In this document: positions 7,477 to 38,996 of the stretch, one piece after another
Numbering within the stretch: the first letter of the stretch is position 1
Layout of the letters: every line of letters starts with the position of its first letter
DNA from: an uncultured Candidatus Saccharibacteria bacterium
GTDB lineage: Bacteria; Patescibacteriota; Minisyncoccia; Phycocordibacterales; UBA1006
DNA length: 39,089 nucleotides
Assembly (NCBI GenBank): GCA_964605495.1
Contig: CAZSCW010000001.1
Location: forward strand, 4,843 to 43,931
Direction of reading: 5' to 3'
The notes under the pieces: generated by a model
Seen by the model: the letters and a program-made list of their open reading frames with translations, nothing else
What the model was told of the DNA's origin: nothing
Database searches by the model: none
Program-made: the position numbers and the translations under genes

Positions 7477-8415
7477 TTAATTTACAGCGAACATACGTTG
7501 CATTGTGTTGTAATTATTGACTAATAAATTATAATTTTTTTGAAAAACTAAAAATATAGCAATTCTGGTTGATTCATCTGATGGCCCAAAAACACTTTTT
7601 GATAATGCTTCTGACATTCTTTTCAAATCATTTAATAACATTAGGTGACCCTCGATAAAATCATTTGGTACCGGTAATGATTTTAATTCTGTGACTTCAC
7701 GACTGAGTGTTCCTTGAAACAATGTTAACTGTGCACTGTTCTCTCCACTAAACAAACTTGCATAAATTGCTTTTATAGATGCATCATCCAATATCACAAT
7801 CTTTTTTACACTGTCTATTTTAGCTTTATAAGGTGCTTCTGCGTTATCTTCTGAATATTCAATATCATCTAACGTATATGGTGAGATTTGATTTTCAATT
7901 GAATCTGCAAGATCTAATAACTCTTTGGTAGTTGCTGCCTGGACAGCCTCTTGGATATTATTTCCTTTCGGATCTGTTAGTAATCTTTGATAAATTTTTA
8001 GCGCAAGCTTGTCTTCTGTGGTAACTGCATTTTTTGCAGCATCACTATTTAATAAATACCGCACATCCTGAGGGACACTATCGGCACTGTTTGGGATGTT
8101 TGGATCAGTACCAATTAATGCTTCTTGCCAATCAGCAAGTCCATCACCATCAGTATCTTTATCCACACTGAGTTCTCCTTTTGCTCGATCCCCTGCTACT
8201 GGTGTTGGAATAGCTACTAATGATTGCAATGCATTGTTTCTAATTTTTTGAATGAGTGATAATACAGGTTTCCATAATGCATATCCAATAATTAAAATTA
8301 ATATAATGATCAATACTCGTCTGATCTGTGGACCAGGTAAATATTTTTCCCACGGATGTTTTGGTGGTTGTATAGTGTTTTCAATTTTTTTATTATCGAT
8401 GTTAGAGGTATTCAT
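7477..8415 (-). CDS. membrane-anchored hypothetical protein with one Ca-binding-like DxDxDGD motif
   Basis: ORF 7477..8463. The start at 8415 (MNTSNIDNKK) avoids overlap with the rsmA stop at 8420. TM is VLIIILILIIGYALW; motif is DKDTDGDGLADWQE. Confidence 0.7.
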   Translation of the reverse strand: MNTSNIDNKKIENTIQPPKHPWEKYLPGPQIRRVLIIILILIIGYALWKPVLSLIQKIRNNALQSLVAIPTPVAGDRAKGELSVDKDTDGDGLADWQEALIGTDPNIPNSADSVPQDVRYLLNSDAAKNAVTTEDKLALKIYQRLLTDPKGNNIQEAVQAATTKELLDLADSIENQISPYTLDDIEYSEDNAEAPYKAKIDSVKKIVILDDASIKAIYASLFSGENSAQLTLFQGTLSREVTELKSLPVPNDFIEGHLMLLNDLKRMSEALSKSVFGPSDESTRIAIFLVFQKNYNLLVNNYNTMQRMFAVN

Positions 8416-9543: not shown

Positions 9544-10578
9544 GTGACTTTAAGCGTTTGGGCTTTTGCTCCAAACGTTGTTTCTGCTGGTTTATTTAAT
9601 TTTGCATCTGCAGAACGTGCTGATACTCCTCGTGCAGAAACATTACAAAGTCTTCCTATTATGGAGGCGCATTTGTCACCTATGATGCTTGCAACTGTTG
9701 ATTCAACTGTGTCAATTACTGATGATGATACATTAACTGCTCCGTTTTCTTTATATGAATTGGATACAGTTGATGTTCCTGATCGTGAAACCATTTCGAC
9801 ATATACAGTCGAACCTGGTGATACTCTTTCAGGTATTGCAAATGAATTTGGTGTAAGTACTAATACTATCCGTTGGGCAAACGATATTCCAGCAAAAGCG
9901 ACAGTAAAGGTTGGACAAAAATTAGTGATCTTACCAATTACAGGAGTTCGCCATAAGGTAGCAAAAGGAGATACGATTGCAACCATTGCAAAGAGATATA
10001 AGGCTGATACTGCTGATATAGCATCATATAATGATCTTGATTCAGGTGAAAAATTAACCGTCGGTTCAACTATTATTGTACCTGATGGAGAAATTCAGTT
10101 TACCCAGGCACAGCTTGCAAAATCTTCAGGAAAAACTGGAAAGGGCGGAAATAGTACCGATTCCCAATATAAAAATACTATGGGCAAAATTGGAGGGATC
10201 TCAAAACAGTCTGCACCAAATGGATACTTTATTCGTCCTGTAGTAGGAACAAAAACTCAAGGGTTCCACGGACCATATAACGCTATTGATATTGGTGCCC
10301 CAGAGGGAACACCGATTGTTGCAGCAGCTGCAGGTACAGTAATTCTTGCAAAAGGTTCTGGTTACAATGGTGGATACGGAGGGTTAACTATTATTCAACA
10401 CCCAAATGGGTCACAAAGTTTGTACGCTCACCAAAGTAAAGTTACTGCAAATGTAGGTGACCATGTTGCACAAGGTCAAAAAATTGGTGAAGTTGGACAT
10501 ACCGGACGCGTAATTGGACGCACCGGAAATCATTTACACCTTGAATTCAGAAACATTAAAACTCCAATATTATATTAA
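9544..10578 (+). CDS. LysM-domain M23 family metallopeptidase (cell-wall hydrolase)
   Basis: Two LysM repeats (YTVEPGDTLSGIANEFGV..., HKVAKGDTIATIAKRYKA...). M23 core is AIDIGAPEGTPIVAAAAGTV...YAHQS...GEVGHTG...HLHLEF. GTG start; no ATG/GTG/TTG lies upstream in frame. Confidence 0.9.
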   Translation: MTLSVWAFAPNVVSAGLFNFASAERADTPRAETLQSLPIMEAHLSPMMLATVDSTVSITDDDTLTAPFSLYELDTVDVPDRETISTYTVEPGDTLSGIANEFGVSTNTIRWANDIPAKATVKVGQKLVILPITGVRHKVAKGDTIATIAKRYKADTADIASYNDLDSGEKLTVGSTIIVPDGEIQFTQAQLAKSSGKTGKGGNSTDSQYKNTMGKIGGISKQSAPNGYFIRPVVGTKTQGFHGPYNAIDIGAPEGTPIVAAAAGTVILAKGSGYNGGYGGLTIIQHPNGSQSLYAHQSKVTANVGDHVAQGQKIGEVGHTGRVIGRTGNHLHLEFRNIKTPILY

Positions 10579-30335: not shown

Positions 30336-30352
30336 AAGTGCGGTTATAGTGT

Positions 30353-30659
30353 GGAAAAGTTCTCGATAGCAAATAAATATATTAAATACATGATTTGTTT
30401 TTGCTTTTCGATCGTAATGGTGATTAACCCCTTGGGTTGGTGTGAAGGCGCTGGTACATATTGCTATGCCAGTTTTCTGAGGCCTTCACACCGGACGCGG
30501 TTAATGGTCCATAAGTAGATCTGTTCTAAAGAATTTACGTCAACTCAAGTTGTTTTTACGTTGAGCTGGTTGTTGTCATCTTTTTCTAATCAGAAACCTG
30601 ATTAGAAGTAATGACTTTTCCGAACGTTTGATGATCTACCGAGAACTTTCTCGTTTTTT
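30353..30659 (+). ncRNA. candidate ~300-nt structured RNA
   Basis: - No ORF.
- 30353-30369 pairs with 30636-30652 (14 WC + 1 GU of 17).
- Internal perfect stems are GGTGTGAAGGC/GCCTTCACACC (30439-49 / 30482-92) and TTCTAATCAG-aaac-CTGATTAGAA (30584-30607).
- T6 at 30654-59. Confidence 0.4.
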
Positions 30660-30930
30660 GGTTGCTTAGTGTCCCATTTTTCATTGTTAATTTTTAAAGA
30701 ATTGATTTACCTACCAAGTATAGCAGATTCTAAAAATATGTCAAGCTTTTTGCAAAAATAGTCTATCTTTTTCGTCAGGGTAGGCTTTTTTGTAATAATT
30801 TTAATTTTTTCCATTAAATATTTTTATAGAAATATGTCAAATTTTAGTATATTTTGTCTATTTAAAACAACAAAATATCCTTTATTTATAATGATTAATA
30901 TAGTTATCCACAGTTTTATGTCGAAATGAT

Positions 30931-30959
30931 TTGACAAAATATAATGAATCTGCTATACT
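30931..30959 (+). promoter_or_regulatory. strong sigma70-type promoter firing into the noncoding rsr leader
   Basis: TTGACA-17 nt-TATACT. A perfect DnaA box TTATCCACA sits at 30904-30912 just upstream. Confidence 0.6.
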
Positions 30960-31181
30960 GCAATTAAGAACGTGAGATACAGTCATGTTCAATACCGCGA
31001 GATACATAAAAACTGTTTAATTCTTTAGACAGACTCTTGAAACCAAGTCCACTTGATATCAGCCATATGGTTGGTATCTGGAATAGTTGGAATCAGGTAC
31101 GTCACCGAATGACGTTAAATGTCGGCGCAATCATATGCGATATTGAATAATTCTTTTACAAAAAAATAAAACTATATAACT

Positions 31182-31349
31182 ATGCCAAAAACACCGAAAG
31201 ATATCTGGAAATTAACAGTTGCCCTACTGGACCAAAACGGCTTTACCACTCGTGGTGAAAAGAAAAAAGACGCACAGAAGAAAAAGAAGCAATTCTTTTT
31301 TGAAAAGCGATTACTTACTAATCCGGTTGGGAATGGAAAACACCGTTAA
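31182..31349 (+). CDS. possible 55-aa basic small protein in the leader
   Basis: Hand-translated MPKTPKDIWKLTVALLDQNGFTTRGEKKKDAQKKKKQFFFEKRLLTNPVGNGKHR*. No clear RBS. Confidence 0.25.
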   Translation: MPKTPKDIWKLTVALLDQNGFTTRGEKKKDAQKKKKQFFFEKRLLTNPVGNGKHR

Positions 31350-31399
31350 GTTACCATCTGTCTCTCTTGCAGGTTTTGGCGTAGCCAAAGAGAATGTTC

Positions 31400-31474
31400 A
31401 TAATCGTAACTGATTATGATCTTTATCCAGATTATGAAGCAATTCATAGTTTGGTAGAGATGTTCTTTCAAAAA
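31400..31474 (+). ncRNA. A-type RNA module, copy A1 (variant)
   Basis: Small hairpin ATAATC/GATTAT, then CTTTATCCAGATTATGAAG-caat-TCATAGTTTGGTAGAG, then tail ATGTTCTTTCAAAA. Confidence 0.5.
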
Positions 31475-31547
31475 TCTTGAAAGGAATATCCCCAGCATCA
31501 TTTATAAAACGGAGATGGTGTTTGGAATATTCCTTTCGAGGAGAAAA
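31475..31547 (+). ncRNA. C-type RNA module, copy C1
   Basis: TCTTGAAAGGAATATCC ... GGAATATTCCTTTCGAGGAGAAAA, a ~16-bp stem. Confidence 0.5.
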
Positions 31548-31811
31548 ACAATAGGCTGGTGTCAGGACCACAACATCTCTGAATTTACATTCGAACTAAA
31601 TCGGATATAAATGTGGGATTGTTTGCAGAAATATTAAAAAATAATTCTTTGATAAGAGAAAGTAGGAAGATGCAAGAGCTTAGTCATTTCGACTATGTAT
31701 CGTCTATCCTATGATCCGCCTTTCTGATCAAAAGGTTTCAAATTTCTTGGCAGGGTATTACAACTATATCCTTATCTATAAGCATGACGATGTGAAATGG
31801 TAAAATTTTTC

Positions 31812-31921
31812 GGGAAATTGTTTTGCAATCGAGCAAAACAATTTCCCTTCTTATCAGGATCATAACTAATACAAAAAGTTATGGTTCTGTAGGAAGTAAT
31901 GGTCCTACTGTTCTTTTAAAA
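31812..31921 (+). ncRNA. A-type RNA module, copy A2
   Basis: Perfect 15-bp hairpin GGGAAATTGTTTTGC/GCAAAACAATTTCCC, then TTCTTATCAGGATCATAA-13 nt-TTATGGTTCTGTAGGAAG, then tail ...CTGTTCTTTTAAAA. Confidence 0.55.
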
Positions 31922-32692
31922 ATTGTTCACCAAACCGTTCTGCTTCTCAACCTGTGTTGTCGCGCAGGGCCATTATCCGTAAGGATATGGCGTTCCCTTG
32001 GATCTACTTGTCGCTGACTATTATTTCCCGGCTTGGAAATGATGGAAGACTACCTATCCGAGGTTACTTCGCAAATCTAACAAATAAAATTATGTTTTAC
32101 TGTTGGTGGATTCTCAATTCTCGACCAGAGGATTGTAGGGTTTACCAACGCAAACCGAGAAGCAGAGGGTGTGACTACCTGGGGCGGTTACCCAAACAGT
32201 CCAAGCGTTAGCAATCTTGATTATTATTTTCTTTATCATGCATTCCCATCAACCAGGAAGCCAATGTTTCAAAAAGAAACGTTGGCTTCTATCATCGGGA
32301 ATGATATGTTAGGAAAATAATTTTCAAGTCGTTTGGAATGATCATGTGCGCAGTGATTGTTCGAACCAAAGGTTGGTACTCCTTTGGAAGTTGTTAGGAT
32401 GATTCAGGAAATTCTTCTAGAGCTATTCAATGGTCTGGCCGGACTATTGATAGACGTGAAGGGTTTCCTGACATCCGAAATGTCCCGGCACTATGTCAGG
32501 ACAGTTACCTTATTCGCCTCTTGTCGCTTGATCTTTGATTTCTATACCAATAGAGAGAAAAGAAACGACTGCAGAATTAGGTTACTTCGCAGAAAAGTCT
32601 TTTTATTTCGGCGGGGATCCTGTTCCGTACAGACGATACCGCCAGGCCTTGGGATTGAACATAATGTTCAATCCCTTCTTATCAGGATCATA
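31879..32692 (+). ncRNA. ~0.8-kb ORF-poor, highly structured segment between modules A2 and A3
   Basis: Multiple long stems:
- 32244-32300: CATTCCC...GGAAGCCAATGTTTC-aaaaa-GAAACGTTGGCTTC...GGGAATG
- CCTGACAT/ATGTCAGG at 32467-32499
- long-range TCTGCTTCTC (31939-48) pairing with GAGAAGCAGA (32156-65). Confidence 0.4.
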
Positions 32693-32728
32693 AAGTAATT
32701 TGTGATTCTGTAGGAATTTGTTCTTTGA
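32651..32728 (+). ncRNA. A-type RNA module, copy A3 (immediately upstream of rsr)
   Basis: GGGATTGAAC-ataat-GTTCAATCCC, then TTCTTATCAGGATCATAA-loop-TGTGATTCTGTAGGAA, then tail TTTGTTCTTTGA. Confidence 0.55.
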
Positions 32729-32758
32729 TTTTAAAATAATTCTGTTGCTGACGATTTG

Positions 32759-32813
32759 TTTATTTGGTGAAAAAGGGGGTTAAATCACATGTGACTCTCT
32801 TTCACCAAATAAA
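32759..32813 (+). promoter_or_regulatory. perfect 14-bp hairpin ending 9 nt before the rsr ATG
   Basis: TTTATTTGGTGAAA (32759-72) pairs with TTTCACCAAATAAA (32800-13). The 27-nt loop contains AAGGGGG. Confidence 0.5.
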
Positions 32814-32822
32814 ATTTCGTCT

Positions 32823-34427
32823 ATGACTACTATACATACTATTACCGCTGCTTTTGCTGGAAGATCTACAGAATCATCTCATGTTAATCATGCAGGTGGT
32901 ACATCTTTCAGAAGATCCTTGTGGGAACAACTCCTACAAGTACTCAGCACGAATACCTTGAGTGATACATTTTATGTGAAGAAGGAGCAGCTTGCTTCGG
33001 AAACCATAGATGTGATCATGGAGGCTCGTGAAAAAGATCACCGTTTCCTCGCACAAGCAATTGTGTGGGCGCGTAGAGATGGTTTAATGAAATTGGTTCC
33101 GACACTTGCTCTCGCGATTCTTTCTGGAAAGAAAGGTATCGAGCCGCAATTGTTTTTGAACACGTTTCAGCAAACAATCTTGACGCCGGATGATCTCCGC
33201 ACATTCGTTTCAATCATCAAGTCTGGTGTAGTGCCAGGCAGAAGAGGAATTGGTGGAGTGGTGCGCGATGCTGTTCGTACTTGGATGGGTGGTATTTCCG
33301 AATATCATGCTGTTAAGTACGGCTCGGTTAATTCCGATGGAGTTACACTCCGCGACATCTTGCGCCTGACTCACCCGAAACCATCTTCTGATGTGTTGAA
33401 CGAGCGTTTTGGATGGCTTGCAGGTTCGCGCAAGGGAGACCTTACGTTGAATCCGCAGATTTTGTCATTGGAAAAATTGAAGCGTGCAACAACCGAAGAA
33501 GAGATAGTTCAATTGGTTCGCCAAGGAAGACTACCCTACGAGGTTGTGGTGCCGTCAGTTCCGAAGATGACAAAGGCTGTGTGGGCCGAGCTGTTACGAC
33601 AAGCTCCGTACATGAACCTACTTCGAAACTTACGTTCGTTCCGCGAACATGGAGTTTTTGAAGACCAGGCAAATGTCGAGTACGTTGTTGGCAGACTCAC
33701 CGATCCGCGTGCGGTTGAGGCAAGTCGAGTATTACCATTCCGCTTTTTTGATGCGTTAAAAGCTTTCACATTCACCTCTGCACCCGACATGCAGATACGT
33801 GATGCGATAGCGAGCGGGCTTGAATTGTCATTTGTGAATCTTCCGAATTTCGGTTCGGAGACACATGTGACAATTGGTTCAGATGTCAGTGGTTCAATGT
33901 CATCTTATTCAATCTCTGAAAAGAGCGAGACTAAGTGCATTGATATCTGTGGTGTCTTTACCGGAGCTCTCTTAAAACGTAGCGAAAATGTACTTACACT
34001 TCCATTCGAGGGACATGTTGTACATTTGCCACTTTCAAAGCACGACAGCATCGCTGAAACGGCTCGAAAGATTGCAAGTGTGCGAGGTGGTTCCACAGCG
34101 GTTGGTGCACCAATACAATACCTGCTTGATCGTAAGATTAAGACAGATGTATTCATTGGTATCACTGACAACGAGGATTGGGCATATGGATCAGGACACG
34201 CAGTGTCAGGTAAATTTTACGACTTGTGGTTACGCTACAAGAAGGAAATTAACCCAAATGCGAAAGCATTTCTGGTAACCATTCTCCCATACCGCGACGC
34301 TGTAGCCCCTGAGGGCTCGGATGTTCATTTCATCTACGGATGGAGTGAGAAGGTATTGAATTATATTGCTTTGAAAATATCTACAGGCGCGAGTCAGGTA
34401 GATAAGATCAGAACGATAGAAGTTTGA
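32823..34427 (+). CDS. rsr: Ro60-related protein Rsr (TROVE domain + vWA domain)
   Basis: 534 aa. N-terminal NHAGGTSF...LSDTFY and ...AQAIVWARRDGLMKLVPTLALAIL match the TROVE pattern of Ro60/Rsr. The C-terminal vWA has the MIDAS motif DVSGSM. Visibly higher G+C than its neighbours. Confidence 0.85.
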   Translation: MTTIHTITAAFAGRSTESSHVNHAGGTSFRRSLWEQLLQVLSTNTLSDTFYVKKEQLASETIDVIMEAREKDHRFLAQAIVWARRDGLMKLVPTLALAILSGKKGIEPQLFLNTFQQTILTPDDLRTFVSIIKSGVVPGRRGIGGVVRDAVRTWMGGISEYHAVKYGSVNSDGVTLRDILRLTHPKPSSDVLNERFGWLAGSRKGDLTLNPQILSLEKLKRATTEEEIVQLVRQGRLPYEVVVPSVPKMTKAVWAELLRQAPYMNLLRNLRSFREHGVFEDQANVEYVVGRLTDPRAVEASRVLPFRFFDALKAFTFTSAPDMQIRDAIASGLELSFVNLPNFGSETHVTIGSDVSGSMSSYSISEKSETKCIDICGVFTGALLKRSENVLTLPFEGHVVHLPLSKHDSIAETARKIASVRGGSTAVGAPIQYLLDRKIKTDVFIGITDNEDWAYGSGHAVSGKFYDLWLRYKKEINPNAKAFLVTILPYRDAVAPEGSDVHFIYGWSEKVLNYIALKISTGASQVDKIRTIEV

Positions 34428-34728
34428 TATCTTTGAAGGGATGTTGATATTTGGCGATCGGACCGGTTTCACACTGCTTACTACTACCGATAGCAAGGTA
34501 GCGTACAAGTATTTTTTCAAACGGAAAAAATGCGGAGCAGCCGGTTGGCAACAGAAAGTACCTTGCTTGCGAGGGAAAAAGTGAAGAAGGTATCAGATTC
34601 CGCCTTTTAAAATAATTGGAATCACTATATAGACTATTTCGTCATGTTTGCGAAAGCACATGAATATCCTCGCCTTGGTGGAAAACGAAAAGGTGAAATA
34701 GTCAGCGGTTACCAGAAATGGATCCGCA

Positions 34729-34779
34729 CCTGTCCTGAAATGTATATTTCAGCTGATGAGTCCAACAGGACGAAACAGG
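34729..34779 (+). ncRNA. type III hammerhead ribozyme HHR-1
   Basis: CCUGU-C(cut after 34734)-[CUGAAAU guau AUUUCAG]-CUGAUGA-[GUCC aaca GGAC]-GAA-ACAGG. All core nucleotides are present, with a GUC cleavage triplet and stem III open. Confidence 0.9.
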
Positions 34780-34798: not shown

Positions 34799-34837
34799 AA
34801 CAAAACCGCTTGATTGCGGTTTTGTTGTTTCTTTTTC
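34799..34837 (+). terminator. intrinsic terminator right after HHR-1
   Basis: AACAAAACCGC ttgatt... GCGGTTTTGTT followed by a T-rich tail. Confidence 0.65.
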
Positions 34838-35410: not shown

Positions 35411-35443
35411 AAAACACCTCATTCCGCAGAATGAGGTGTTTTT
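35411..35443. terminator. bidirectional terminator
   Basis: CACCTCATTC cgca GAATGAGGTG with A/T runs. Confidence 0.7.
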
Positions 35444-36218
35444 ATTTTGCCTGTATCCACAGTGTTTCAAAAATCATTTTCGCAAATTCGTAAATAGATT
35501 TATTGGTGATTACAATAGAATGTAATCCCTGATCCCAAATAGTAAATGTCACGTGATTTTTCCAGATAGAACAATGCAAATTCGGATTGAGTATTTTTTT
35601 TGAAATAATTCGTGTATCACGCAGTTTTAATCGTGATTCTTTTAGTTCGTCTTTTGCCATAGGGGATTCGGTAATAATGTTTCGTGCTGTAATACCTTTT
35701 TTCCGGCGAGCTTTACCATACCCATGCAGACGATCCTTTGCAACAGTAAATTTCTCAACTTCACCAGAAATACGTAACACTTCTCCATTTTTATCTTGAT
35801 CAAGTGACCTAAAAAACAAATCAATAAAACCGTCTTCACCTTCCAAGTGTTCTACATCTATTTGTTCAGTTTCGCCACGTAATGCAAAAAACGTACGAAG
35901 TTCTGGAAAAACAGATTCTAATGACTCCATTTTTTGTGTTGCAATTATTTTTTCATACTCTACAAAGTTTTTTATTTTTTCAGGTTTTTCAATATACATC
36001 ATGCGCCGCTTACCAAGTTTGGTTACACCCAAAACTTTTCTCTCAAGGAGGTTTTCAGTAGCTACATGTACCGTCGAACGGGGAAGTTTCACCCCAGATG
36101 CAATATCTGCAATAGTCGAAAGTCCAGATTTAAACAAGTAAAAAATAACCTGCTGTTCGGCCATGTCCAACCCAATAGTTTTTAATGCTGTTTTAATATC
36201 TTTTGGTATTTCAATCAT
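35442..36218 (-). CDS. TrmB-like winged-helix transcriptional regulator (paralog 2)
   Basis: LKTIGLDMAEQQVIFYLFKSGLSTIADIASGVKLPRSTVHVATENLLERKVL. Same length and architecture as 29571..30335. Confidence 0.8.
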   Translation of the reverse strand: MIEIPKDIKTALKTIGLDMAEQQVIFYLFKSGLSTIADIASGVKLPRSTVHVATENLLERKVLGVTKLGKRRMMYIEKPEKIKNFVEYEKIIATQKMESLESVFPELRTFFALRGETEQIDVEHLEGEDGFIDLFFRSLDQDKNGEVLRISGEVEKFTVAKDRLHGYGKARRKKGITARNIITESPMAKDELKESRLKLRDTRIISKKILNPNLHCSIWKNHVTFTIWDQGLHSIVITNKSIYEFAKMIFETLWIQAK

Positions 36219-36342: not shown

Positions 36343-36371
36343 TTGACTTTTCATGTATACCATGCTATACT
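36343..36371 (+). promoter_or_regulatory. sigma70-type promoter firing into noncoding modules
   Basis: TTGACT-17 nt-TATACT. An inverted repeat ATGACAC..ATACTAAT / ATTAGTAT..GTGTCAT (36259-36337) abuts the -35. Confidence 0.55.
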
Positions 36372-36572: not shown

Positions 36573-36586
36573 ATGCAAAGGAAAAT

Positions 36587-36665
36587 GGACGAGCCTTTAT
36601 AAAATCGTCCACATTATTCAGCTCACGAATTTCGCGAGTTGATAGTGTAACAATGTTCTTTGAAA
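36587..36665 (+). ncRNA. B-type RNA module, copy B1
   Basis: GGACGA-12 nt-TCGTCC, then CATTATTCAG-CTCACGAatttCGCGAG-TTGATAGTG, then tail AATGTTCTTTGAAA. Confidence 0.5.
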
Positions 36666-36931: not shown

Positions 36932-36981
36932 TTTAATTGGTTACCTAAGTTTCTTACCAGAAATTTAGGTAACCAATTAAA
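36932..36981 (+). promoter_or_regulatory. perfect 17-bp hairpin ending 9 nt before the lipoprotein ATG
   Basis: TTTAATTGGTTACCTAA (36932-48) pairs with TTAGGTAACCAATTAAA (36965-81). 16-nt loop. Confidence 0.5.
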
Positions 36982-36990
36982 TTAAGAGAT

Positions 36991-37305
36991 ATGAAAAAGA
37001 TAAGTATTATCGCATTAGGATTCATAATGTTTTTGACTTCTTGTAAAAACGAAACCTATTACCAAGGTAAGGGTGTAGTTATTGAAGAAGACAGAACATA
37101 CTTTGGGGGTGTGCAAGTGAAAGTATCAGTTGATACTGCAGGAGATGGTAACCAGATTTGGTTCTGGGCATCTCCTGCAGGTTTTGCTGATAGCTATCAC
37201 CGCTATTCTCAAGGTGACACCGTAGACGTTGAATACATGGCATTCAATAGTTGGGTCAGTCCTGTGACGGAAAAGTCCAAACAAGACAGCGCTGAAGTAC
37301 AGTAA
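36991..37305 (+). CDS. small lipoprotein, hypothetical
   Basis: MKKISIIALGFIMFLTSC has an LTSC lipobox. 104 aa. Confidence 0.7.
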   Translation: MKKISIIALGFIMFLTSCKNETYYQGKGVVIEEDRTYFGGVQVKVSVDTAGDGNQIWFWASPAGFADSYHRYSQGDTVDVEYMAFNSWVSPVTEKSKQDSAEVQ

Positions 37306-37377
37306 GCATGTCGCTGGCTAAGGTGCAAAACACCTTACACTCTTGTCTGAAAGAGGTAAAACTTCAGGAAGGAGAAC

Positions 37378-37455
37378 GGGCAAGCCTATATAAAATTGCC
37401 CTCATTATTCAACTCACGAATTTCGTGAGTTGATAGTGTAAGTAGTTCTTTAAAA
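37378..37455 (+). ncRNA. B-type RNA module, copy B2
   Basis: GGGCAA-12 nt-TTGCCC, then CATTATTCAA-CTCACGAatttCGTGAG-TTGATAGTG, then tail TAGTTCTTTAAAA. The first stem is fully compensated relative to B1. Confidence 0.5.
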
Positions 37456-37848: not shown

Positions 37849-38055
37849 ATGGAAAGATTAGATGTTTATATAGAGATAGGTGATCATTATTACTCTGGTC
37901 TCTATAAAAATTGCCCTGTAATATCTTCTGGTGATGACTGGGCTATTGTATATGTCGAGGTTGGCGATCATTATTACTCGGGAGAGTATAGAGTTCTGCT
38001 TTATGGTGATCGCTGGATGACTACAGACTACTATGGTTATCATTACGATGGGTGA
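37849..38055 (+). CDS. hypothetical 68-aa protein with an internal duplication
   Basis: VYIEIGDHYYSGLY and VYVEVGDHYYSGEY repeats; Y/G/D-rich. Confidence 0.5.
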   Translation: MERLDVYIEIGDHYYSGLYKNCPVISSGDDWAIVYVEVGDHYYSGEYRVLLYGDRWMTTDYYGYHYDG

Positions 38056-38178
38056 ACCCTCTCGCTCTAGAGGTATTGTCGTTAGACATGAGAGGTGCGT
38101 TTTGTCCCCGTCTTGCCGAAAAGATGGAGAGCCTCGAGGAAGCAGAGCCTCACGAGTGATTGCATCTTGCATCCTCGT

Positions 38179-38230
38179 TCTGTCCTAGAATGTATTATTC
38201 TAGCTGATGAGTCCAAAAGGACGAAACAGA
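38179..38230 (+). ncRNA. type III hammerhead ribozyme HHR-2
   Basis: UCUGU-C(cut after 38184)-[CUAGAAU guauu AUUCUAG]-CUGAUGA-[GUCC aaaa GGAC]-GAA-ACAGA. Stems I and III differ from HHR-1 only by compensatory pairs. Confidence 0.9.
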
Positions 38231-38268: not shown

Positions 38269-38568
38269 ATGGAAAAGAAATATTATCACTTAGAAAACCT
38301 TGATAAAATCATCACTAAAAAAATCGAGAGTGAACCACAACCACAAATGCAGTCACAGTCACATCTACCGCCAAACTGTATAGACTGTAAGCATCATCGT
38401 GTACTTCCTGACCCAGATCCCGATGATTGGTTCTGTGATGACGATGAAAAAGTTTTGTGTACCCTTGCGAAAAAATTAGTGACAGTCGCATGCAGGCCGC
38501 ACCACAAGCGAAAAGAATGCACGGTTCCGTCATGGTGCCCACTGCTGCAAGCAAACCAAACCGTATAA
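38269..38568 (+). CDS. hypothetical Cys-rich 99-aa protein
   Basis: Eight Cys (CIDC...FCDDDEKVLC...ACRPHHKRKEC...WC). Starts 39 nt after HHR-2. Confidence 0.55.
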   Translation: MEKKYYHLENLDKIITKKIESEPQPQMQSQSHLPPNCIDCKHHRVLPDPDPDDWFCDDDEKVLCTLAKKLVTVACRPHHKRKECTVPSWCPLLQANQTV

Positions 38569-38604: not shown

Positions 38605-38928
38605 ATGGACAATAAAAAATGTCTTTTCAAATATGATGATTTTCTCAAAAATCACATTAATGAGACAATGAGCCCCGAGATCACTGAGTTGTTTCGCAAC
38701 TATGCCTGGCAAGCACCACATGCATTTCTTGCGCTCAAGCGTATAGATCGCATCGCTCAAATAGGTACTGCATCAGGAGAAGTACTAAAACAACTTCTCG
38801 TTGATATGCAGGAAAAGTTCAAACGTGCCGGCATTGCAAGAAACGAGGTCGCGAAGATTAAACAGGTATTGTTTGATAGATATCCTGATATCCAGAGGAA
38901 AATCAAACAAACCCCTGTATCGCGATAG
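38605..38928 (+). CDS. hypothetical 107-aa protein
   Basis: ATG ORF 37 nt after the previous stop, followed by a terminator at 38939-38963 (AGAACAGG aaatc CCTGTTCT TTTT). Confidence 0.55.
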   Translation: MDNKKCLFKYDDFLKNHINETMSPEITELFRNYAWQAPHAFLALKRIDRIAQIGTASGEVLKQLLVDMQEKFKRAGIARNEVAKIKQVLFDRYPDIQRKIKQTPVSR

Positions 38929-38996
38929 TAGTTTTCACAGAACAGGAAATCCCTGTTCTTTTTATTCAATTTAATCTATAATTAGAAAATAATTCT

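Follow-up and report, generated by a model that had tools for sequence, protein, structure and literature searches.

A conserved type III hammerhead ribozyme upstream of a small cysteine-rich gene in an uncultured Patescibacteria bacterium

A type III hammerhead ribozyme (HHR), designated HHR-2, was found on the plus strand of a 39,089-nt stretch of DNA (contig CAZSCW010000001.1, assembly GCA_964605495.1; hereafter the window) from an uncultured Patescibacteria bacterium of the candidate phyla radiation (CPR). It stands shortly upstream of an open reading frame (ORF) for a cysteine-rich protein of 99 amino acids (aa), is retained with covarying stems upstream of the same gene in five related loci, and belongs to a phage-type hammerhead module that is now extended into Patescibacteria. 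Judged on comparative sequence evidence, HHR-2 is a genuine, conserved type III hammerhead, and it is rather likely to be an active, constitutive ribozyme in the 5' untranslated region (UTR) of the cysteine-rich gene, working by the mechanism proposed below. The coordinates of the features are collected in Table 1.

Sequence and structure of HHR-2

HHR-2 reads UCUGU C ^ CUAGAAU GUAUU AUUCUAG CUGAUGA GUCC AAAA GGAC GAAA CAGA, the caret marking the predicted cut, and folds as three helices around the core. Stem I (7 base pairs, bp) joins 38185-38191 to 38197-38203 and is closed by loop 1 (38192-38196), stem II (4 bp, GUCC/GGAC) joins 38211-38214 to 38219-38222 and is closed by loop 2 (AAAA, 38215-38218), and stem III (5 bp, UCUGU/ACAGA), which joins 38179-38183 to 38226-38230, is open, as in the type III topology. 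The core is complete, with C3 to A9 present as CUGAUGA (38204-38210) and G12, A13 and A14 as GAA (38223-38225). Beside it lie the G10.1-C11.1 pair (G38211 with C38222) and the A15.1-U16.1 pair (A38226 with U38183), and position 17 is C38184 (non-G). An earlier note on this DNA had described a type III hammerhead with an intact core at 38179-38230, and the re-read sequence and the Rfam alignment confirm it; the cut that it predicted after C38184 agrees with the hammerhead consensus, and the ORF list gives the same 213-nt intergenic gap between the ORFs at 37849-38055 and 38269-38568. Site-specific cleavage leaving 2',3'-cyclic phosphate and 5'-OH ends is established for the hammerhead class (PMC6765202), and the predicted products would be an upstream RNA ending in UCUGUC with a 2',3'-cyclic phosphate and a downstream RNA beginning 5'-OH-CUAGAAU.

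The Rfam family RF00008 (Hammerhead_3) matched HHR-2 with 42.8 bits (E = 3.4e-6 for the whole window, 5.2e-8 locally), the top non-tRNA Rfam match in the window under E-value reporting, followed by a paralogous hammerhead, HHR-1 (40.6 bits). A default Rfam scan of the window returned three transfer RNAs (tRNAs) only, and both hammerheads surfaced only under E-value thresholds. A lax type III pattern gave 18 matches in 1500 Markov-random windows (0.012 per window) against two in the real window, both on the plus strand. Folded by itself, HHR-1 forms the hammerhead, and the minimum-energy fold of HHR-2 contains stems I and II. A coding explanation for the spacer was rejected, as all six frames are interrupted by stops in every relative.

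HHR-1 and HHR-2 share the core and stem II, as the earlier note had stated, and the compensatory changes that it listed between them were also found on comparison: two pairs in stem I (A-U/G-C in HHR-2 against G-C/A-U in HHR-1) and one in stem III (U-A against C-G). Alignment of the two loci showed no likeness beyond the ribozyme itself, and homology between their flanks was rejected. HHR-1 is placed 300 nt downstream of a Ro60/TROVE gene (32823-34427; Pfam matches). Directly after it stands a terminator-like hairpin at 34799-34835 (AACAAAACCGC UUGAUU GCGGUUUUGUU, then a U-rich run), so that the 3' cleavage product of HHR-1 would be only about 90 nt, unlike the setting of HHR-2.

Conservation, covariation and linkage to the cysteine-rich gene

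Homologues of the cysteine-rich ORF numbered 29, and contigs were fetched for the four closest (65-78 % identity; loci L131, L135, L136 and L137). A fifth orthologous locus, L148, was reached via the Ro60 protein on its contig and carries a 75-aa homologue of the cysteine-rich protein. Each of the five loci carries a type III hammerhead shortly before the cysteine-rich ORF. Stem I is CUAGAAU/AUUCUAG in the window, GGAAAGU/ACUUUCC in L131 and L136, GGAGAG/CUUUCC in L135, UCAGAAU/AUUCUGA in L137 and UUGGAAU/AUUCCAA in L148. Across the six orthologous sequences (window plus five) 97.9 % of cells pair and 8 of the 16 pairs are doubly changed; none of 500 shuffles reached the observed pairing, and slid controls paired at 37-50 %. 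With paralogues included, the seven CPR copies pair in 98.2 % of cells and 9 of 16 pairs are doubly changed. The distance from hammerhead to ATG is 29-38 nt in five of the seven CPR hammerheads, and 76 and 79 nt in the other two.

The gene directly upstream encodes a 68-aa protein in the window, a 158-aa protein in L131, a 129-aa protein in L135, an 81-aa protein in L136 and, in L137, a lipoprotein whose window homologue is at 36991-37305. These upstream genes are mutually unrelated; since the upstream gene differs in each relative, the ribozyme, the leader and the cysteine-rich gene constitute a conserved unit. The gene upstream in L148, for a 91-aa protein (10005-10280), stands outside this comparison. 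The locus is a clean natural case of a ribozyme kept with one small gene while the upstream gene is replaced in every relative and the helices are compensated, and this pattern of linkage and compensation fits a ribozyme that insulates the downstream gene or serves as its processing signal.

More distant homologues of the cysteine-rich protein, in nine Patescibacteria species representatives (found by protein alignment against one genome per species) and several phage-like contigs, have neither a hammerhead nor another Rfam ribozyme family nearby. A metagenome scan using the close relatives found L135 again and added no orthologues.

The hammerhead in L148 (10426-10477; NCBI GCA_035910635.1, JAMHXB010000468.1) has A at the cleavage position, and its two stem II pairs next to 10.1/11.1 are compensated (UCUC/GAGU). 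In L136 the 81-aa gene lies between two same-strand type III hammerheads (632-680 and 1115-1166), 435 nt apart; it is absent from the other relatives and resembles an inserted cassette with its own ribozyme.

Membership in a phage-type hammerhead family

Viral contigs (IMG/VR) were scanned with the stem II and core string of this window, which returned at least 120 stretches. Among the matches listed there were 76 distinct hammerheads of type III, some of them with a different stem II, and it is to these 76 that the following figures refer. Loop 1 is U7 (100 %), G8 (89 %), N, N, U11 (82 %), R12; stem I is an 18-nt hairpin, loop 2 is NAAA, and C17 is present in 89 %. The 40 nt upstream form a strong hairpin and fold at a mean of -14.2 kcal/mol, compared with -5.1 for control segments, and an ATG opening an ORF follows at a median of 23 nt. 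The contigs often have three hammerheads each, about 1 kb apart. The retrieval pattern was taken from the window, and likeness in stem II and core is therefore partly by construction; the loop 1 consensus, stem I length, upstream hairpin and ATG distance lay outside that pattern.

A covariance model, R1, was made from 60 of the phage-contig hammerheads, with the window and its relatives excluded. It scored HHR-2 at 65.5 bits (E ~7e-16 over 225 kb) and HHR-1 at 67.8 bits, and found nothing else in the window. A tertiary contact between loops 1 and 2, which in type III hammerheads permits fast cleavage at low Mg2+, may or may not form in HHR-2, whose loops match the subfamily consensus (loop 1 U7 G8.. 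U11 R12, loop 2 NAAA). HHR-2 also has the phage-type layout of a hairpin, a type III hammerhead and a short leader, with an ATG after 38 nt. It shares with the phage set the stem I hairpin of 18-19 nt, the loop UGNNUR, the 4-bp stem II, NAAA, C17, a hairpin abutting a stem III of 4-6 bp, and a short A-rich leader before the ATG. It differs in its A/U-rich stem I, in loop 1 (UGUAUUA against phage UGAGUG or UGUGUG), in a leader longer than the phage median, and in its upstream hairpin, which is not the GUGUCUUCAAAGACAC hairpin recurrent in many phage copies. HHR-2 belongs to a known and common phage-associated group that cuts long transcripts between genes, an assignment that is solid but fairly ordinary. 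The earlier note had raised the idea of a lineage-specific subfamily, which does not hold, both ribozymes falling in a large subfamily that they share with phages. The reading as a hammerhead is stronger than it was in that note because hammerheads with covarying stems occupy the same position in five relatives and because the phage model matches strongly.

A tRNA identity for the hairpins upstream of the phage hammerheads was rejected, as ARAGORN found no adjoining tRNA in the type III loci tested. Large phage tRNA arrays hold another hammerhead form (CUGUCU CUGAUGAGUCCGUAGGGACGAAAC ... GUCAG), which follows immediately upon the 3' end of a tRNA, in the viral contigs L027 (585-608), L050 (2183-2206) and L124 (7457-7480); the L027 copy lies between tRNA-Asp (496-572) and tRNA-Ile (741-817).

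Comparison with other hammerheads

Clustered hammerheads of bacteria and prophages flank single genes and cleaved polycistronic constructs of about 2 kb in vitro (PMC3088659). Processing of polycistronic transcripts is a standing hypothesis for such ribozymes, and the biological roles of bacterial hammerheads are still termed largely elusive (PMC6765202). Like HHR-2, the hammerheads of Perreault et al. 2011 have a canonical core, are intergenic and on the coding strand, occur more than once per locus and stand between short genes without assigned function, and the cutting of a long transcript into messenger RNAs (mRNAs) of gene length was proposed for them (PMC3088659). Unlike them, HHR-2 resides in an uncultured Patescibacteria (CPR) bacterium, in a region without recognisable phage structural genes, and has an invariant 95-nt element directly upstream. 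In the literature searched, no paper was found that pairs hammerheads with the candidate phyla radiation.

Members of RF00008, namely viroid, satellite RNA and eukaryotic type III hammerheads, share the core, the three-helix junction and the open stem III with HHR-2, which differs in its 4-nt loop 2 (8 in the family), its longer loop 1 and a context that is no rolling-circle replicon. In its place shortly upstream of a start codon HHR-2 resembles synthetic insulators of the RiboJ type, in which a hammerhead in the 5' UTR trims away upstream sequence so that the 5' end of the mRNA is independent of what lies upstream. HHR-2 is natural and conserved; the accessory hairpin of RiboJ-type insulators is downstream of the ribozyme, and that of HHR-2 is upstream, on the released fragment.

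The upstream hairpin and the conserved element ncRNA-B

The hairpin abutting stem III contains an inner hairpin (38158-38173) that covaries, its closing pair being A-U in the window and G-C in L131 and L135, and L136 and L137 have a simpler hairpin at this position. Upstream of it lies a conserved element, termed ncRNA-B (ncRNA, noncoding RNA), with the hairpins P1 (38058-38073, CCUCU/AGAGG; two compensated pairs in L135), P2 (38077-38088) and P3 (38108-38127). Approximately 95 nt (roughly 38075-38178, the abutting hairpin included) are identical in the window, L131 and L135, whereas between these genomes 8 of 19 stem I positions differ and the identity of the flanking proteins is about 78-83 %. 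A 24-codon ORF within the conserved stretch (38088-38159) has zero synonymous variation. Neither Rfam, at E up to 10, nor phage records and viral contigs gave a match to the element.

A second structured element, ncRNA-A, was found at five sites: 34458-34586 in the window, 1140-1260 and 3684-3775 in L131, and ~7555-7690 and 10281-10365 in L148. It consists of CGGAYSGG, UUUCAC, a helix with a variable insert, CCSRUUGGCAACAGAAAGUAC, a hairpin and then GAAAAAGUGAA. One helix covaries (ACCGG/CCGGU, AUCGG/CCGAU, ACGGG/CCCGU), Rfam gave no match, and three of the five copies lie just downstream of a Ro60/Rsr gene. The invariant 95-nt element, together with ncRNA-A near the Ro60 gene, is the part of this region most deserving of attention.

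Proposed mechanism and points that weigh against it

Transcription of the plus strand would start near 36.37 kb and end at the terminator near 38.96 kb, giving a transcript of approximately 2.6 kb. The hammerhead would fold during synthesis, its short stem III stacking on the hairpin at 38152-38178; the stacked hairpin would aid folding, and a stem III of only 5 bp would let the products part. The RNA would then cut itself after C38184, leaving an upstream piece that retains its 3' hairpin and UCUGUC with a 2',3'-cyclic phosphate. The other piece, an mRNA of about 0.78 kb with the cysteine-rich and 107-aa ORFs, would have a 5'-OH; the folded ribozyme body would come first in it, then the open 38-nt A/U-rich leader, and the stability and translation of the downstream genes would become independent of whatever lies upstream. 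We infer the cleavage, the ends of the transcript and the consequences for stability or translation; the function so proposed is well supported by the comparative evidence. That HHR-2 splits a polycistronic transcript, as the earlier note had it, is plausible because the flanking ORFs are on the same strand, promoter- and terminator-like sites bracket them, and phage contigs have the same layout. Such a role would agree with the hypothesis that stands for clustered bacterial hammerheads (PMC3088659).

Several points weigh against this interpretation. The Rfam score of HHR-2 (42.8 bits) is below the RF00008 gathering score of 48.5, because loop 2 has 4 nt where the model has 8 positions and loop 1 is longer, with inserted positions; the gathering score is a curation threshold and no property of the ribozyme class. 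In a 191-nt context the minimum-energy fold is without the hammerhead, and such folds take no account of tertiary contacts or of the order in which the RNA is made. In the L148 orthologue the 10.1/11.1 pair, beside the core, is a U.U mismatch, and its R1 score is 49.3 bits where the others reach 65-69; a mismatch of this type was taken as a reason to reject candidates by Perreault et al. (PMC3088659). The L148 hammerhead may thus be weakened or decaying, and a weaker ribozyme may be tolerated at this site. The extreme conservation of the upstream 95 nt is left unexplained by a model of insulation or processing. In a consensus scan P1 was flagged as a weak terminator, and if termination there were efficient, little read-through would reach the ribozyme.

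Alternative explanations

The conserved upstream element could reflect a different selected function, in which HHR-2 would form the 3' end of ncRNA-B (~38058-38184) with a 2',3'-cyclic phosphate, perhaps with participation of the Ro60/Rsr protein, whose gene is 4 kb upstream, and the freed mRNA would be secondary. The identity of ~95 nt despite diverged proteins and a diverged stem I is in keeping with such a function, type III cleavage leaves 6 nt only on the upstream product, ncRNA-A, which adjoins the Ro60 gene, precedes a hammerhead by 60-150 nt in four of its five copies, and in L131 ncRNA-A runs directly into ncRNA-B, up to the hammerhead. However, L136 and L137 have retained hammerhead and gene but, of ncRNA-B, the last hairpin only, ncRNA-B begins right after a stop codon with no evident promoter, and it is carried by about two independent lineages only. 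Bacterial Y RNAs (YrlA) have GNCGAAN0-1G near the 5' end and a tRNA-like module of T and D arms (PMC4201824), and this identity was rejected for both elements: the signature was not seen by eye in 38056-38184 or 34428-34728, where the nearest string, GCCGAAAAG, has one A too many, and there was no Rfam match at E up to 10. We regard 3'-end formation as the selected function as unlikely, and the broader proposal that both hammerheads of this region form the 3' ends of the structured, Rfam-less RNAs ncRNA-A and ncRNA-B as more doubtful still. If it were true, a CPR bacterium would make Ro60-associated ncRNAs with 2',3'-cyclic phosphate ends by ribozyme cleavage.

HHR-2 as a 5' UTR ribozyme kept for its gene was also weighed against descent without present benefit, in which the hammerhead would be a relic of a phage-derived cassette, maybe still cleaving, of no specific gain to the host and decaying in some lineages. 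The ribozyme fits the phage subfamily, distant cysteine-rich homologues occur in phage-like contigs (with tRNA arrays, T4-like and Lar-like ORFs and packed small genes), and the mismatch and low R1 score in L148 resemble decay. Against this, pairing persists at all 16 positions across six lineages, with both partners changed at 8 of them, and the core is invariant, which requires purifying selection on the fold, and the phage-like homologous loci are without a hammerhead, so that the ribozyme was not simply inherited with those genes; a mere relic seems improbable. Regulated cleavage was considered as well, an upstream sensor pairing GUUUUGUCC (38099-38107) with GGACGAAAC (38219-38227) to block the ribozyme, or else releasing the hammerhead. 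RNAalifold and the minimum-energy fold both choose this 9-bp pairing, and the upstream element is conserved at the nucleotide level in the manner of an aptamer. The best duplex (-23.0 kcal/mol) is nevertheless equalled by 18 % of 500 dinucleotide shuffles (-20.3 +/- 2.9), the segment is invariant and so offers no covariation, L136 and L137 do not have it, and no riboswitch family matched. Being no better than shuffled sequence and missing in two relatives, the pairing was rejected as a switch, and regulation of this kind appears very unlikely. Excision of RNA between pairs of hammerheads, giving circles or cassettes from HHR-1 and HHR-2 or from the L136 pair round the 81-aa gene, would accord with the placing of that relative-specific gene between its two ribozymes and with the ability of RNA ligases to join 5'-OH and 2',3'-cyclic phosphate ends, as in viroid circularisation (PMC6765202). 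The 3.4 kb between the window ribozymes, however, hold a minus-strand gene (35442-36218) and the terminator-like hairpin after HHR-1, the window showed neither a ligase nor a reverse transcriptase, and Perreault et al. sought circular or spliced products of clustered bacterial hammerheads and found none (PMC3088659), which makes excision exceedingly improbable.

Genomic setting and other features

Table 1 Positions of the ribozymes and associated features in the window
Feature	Position	Strand	Basis
HHR-2, type III hammerhead	38179..38230	+	Sequence, Rfam RF00008, model R1, covariation in orthologues and paralogues
Predicted scissile bond	38184..38185	+	3' of C38184 (C17); position from hammerhead consensus
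HHR-1, paralogous type III hammerhead	34729..34779	+	Rfam, model R1, orthologues in L148 and L149
Promoter-like site (TTGACT, 17 nt, TG-TATACT)	36343..36371	+	Consensus match only, 10/12, best in region
Conserved upstream element ncRNA-B	38058..38151	+	Alignment with L131 and L135
Hairpin abutting stem III	38152..38178	+	Outer stem ACGAG/CUCGU encloses inner GAU-U-GCA UCU UGC AUC
A/U-rich leader, 38 nt, ribozyme to start codon	38231..38268	+	Sequence; kept in L131, L135 and L136
Cysteine-rich 99-aa ORF	38269..38568	+	29 homologues, alignment
107-aa ORF	38605..38928	+	ORF list; same order in L131 and L136
Terminator-like hairpin and T run	38939..38959	+	Consensus scan

The cysteine-rich ORF has the motif NCxDC...DPDPDDWFCDDD.KV.C...CRP..KR.EC..P.WCP and matched no Pfam or PHROG family. 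Distant homologues occur in L133, L150 and L151, phage-like contigs with tRNA arrays and tightly packed small ORFs, in which weak matches to T4 Y00F, Lar, Peptidase_U49 and dATP/dGTP pyrophosphohydrolase were found, and this small protein family is probably phage-borne. The downstream cleavage product probably carries the 107-aa ORF as well, in one transcript with the cysteine-rich ORF.

Housekeeping genes are present in the window (KsgA, ComM/YifB, CCA-adding enzyme, UvrD, XerC-like), whose GC content is ~35 %. Named homologues of its ComM, at ~62-65 % identity, are from Pacebacteria, Paceibacterota, Nomurabacteria and Patescibacteria, which marks the host as a CPR bacterium; near-identical strain contigs have HD_4, RNase Y, ClpP and trigger factor just past the window. 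The neighbourhood at ~28-39 kb contains the Ro60/TROVE gene, two TrmB-like regulators, a TPM-domain gene and many small ORFs without a family. A phage origin of the neighbouring ORFs was rejected, as in a PHROG search only the Ro60-like protein matched. Upstream of the Ro60 gene, 30336-32822 is ~2.4 kb without a plus-strand ORF of at least 90 aa, in which one 55-aa gene is called in the strain contigs and no Rfam family matched at E up to 1; a compact CPR genome would not usually have such a stretch.

A third repeated intergenic motif (GGAGAAYGGRCRAGCC..AAAUYGYCC.CAUUAUUCARCUCA, a hairpin, then GUUGAUAGUGUAA) is found at 36580-36652 and 37371-37441 in the window, each time after a small ORF, and at ~1325 and ~2680 in L131, and one helix in it covaries (GGACGA/UCGUCC, GGGCAA/UUGCCC, GGACAA/UUGUCC). 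A long inverted repeat, UUAAUUGGUUACCUAAGUUUC ... GAAAUUUAGGUAACCAAUUAA, is conserved between the window (36933-36982) and L131 (2452-2500), and in the window it lies just upstream of the lipoprotein gene at 36991-37305.

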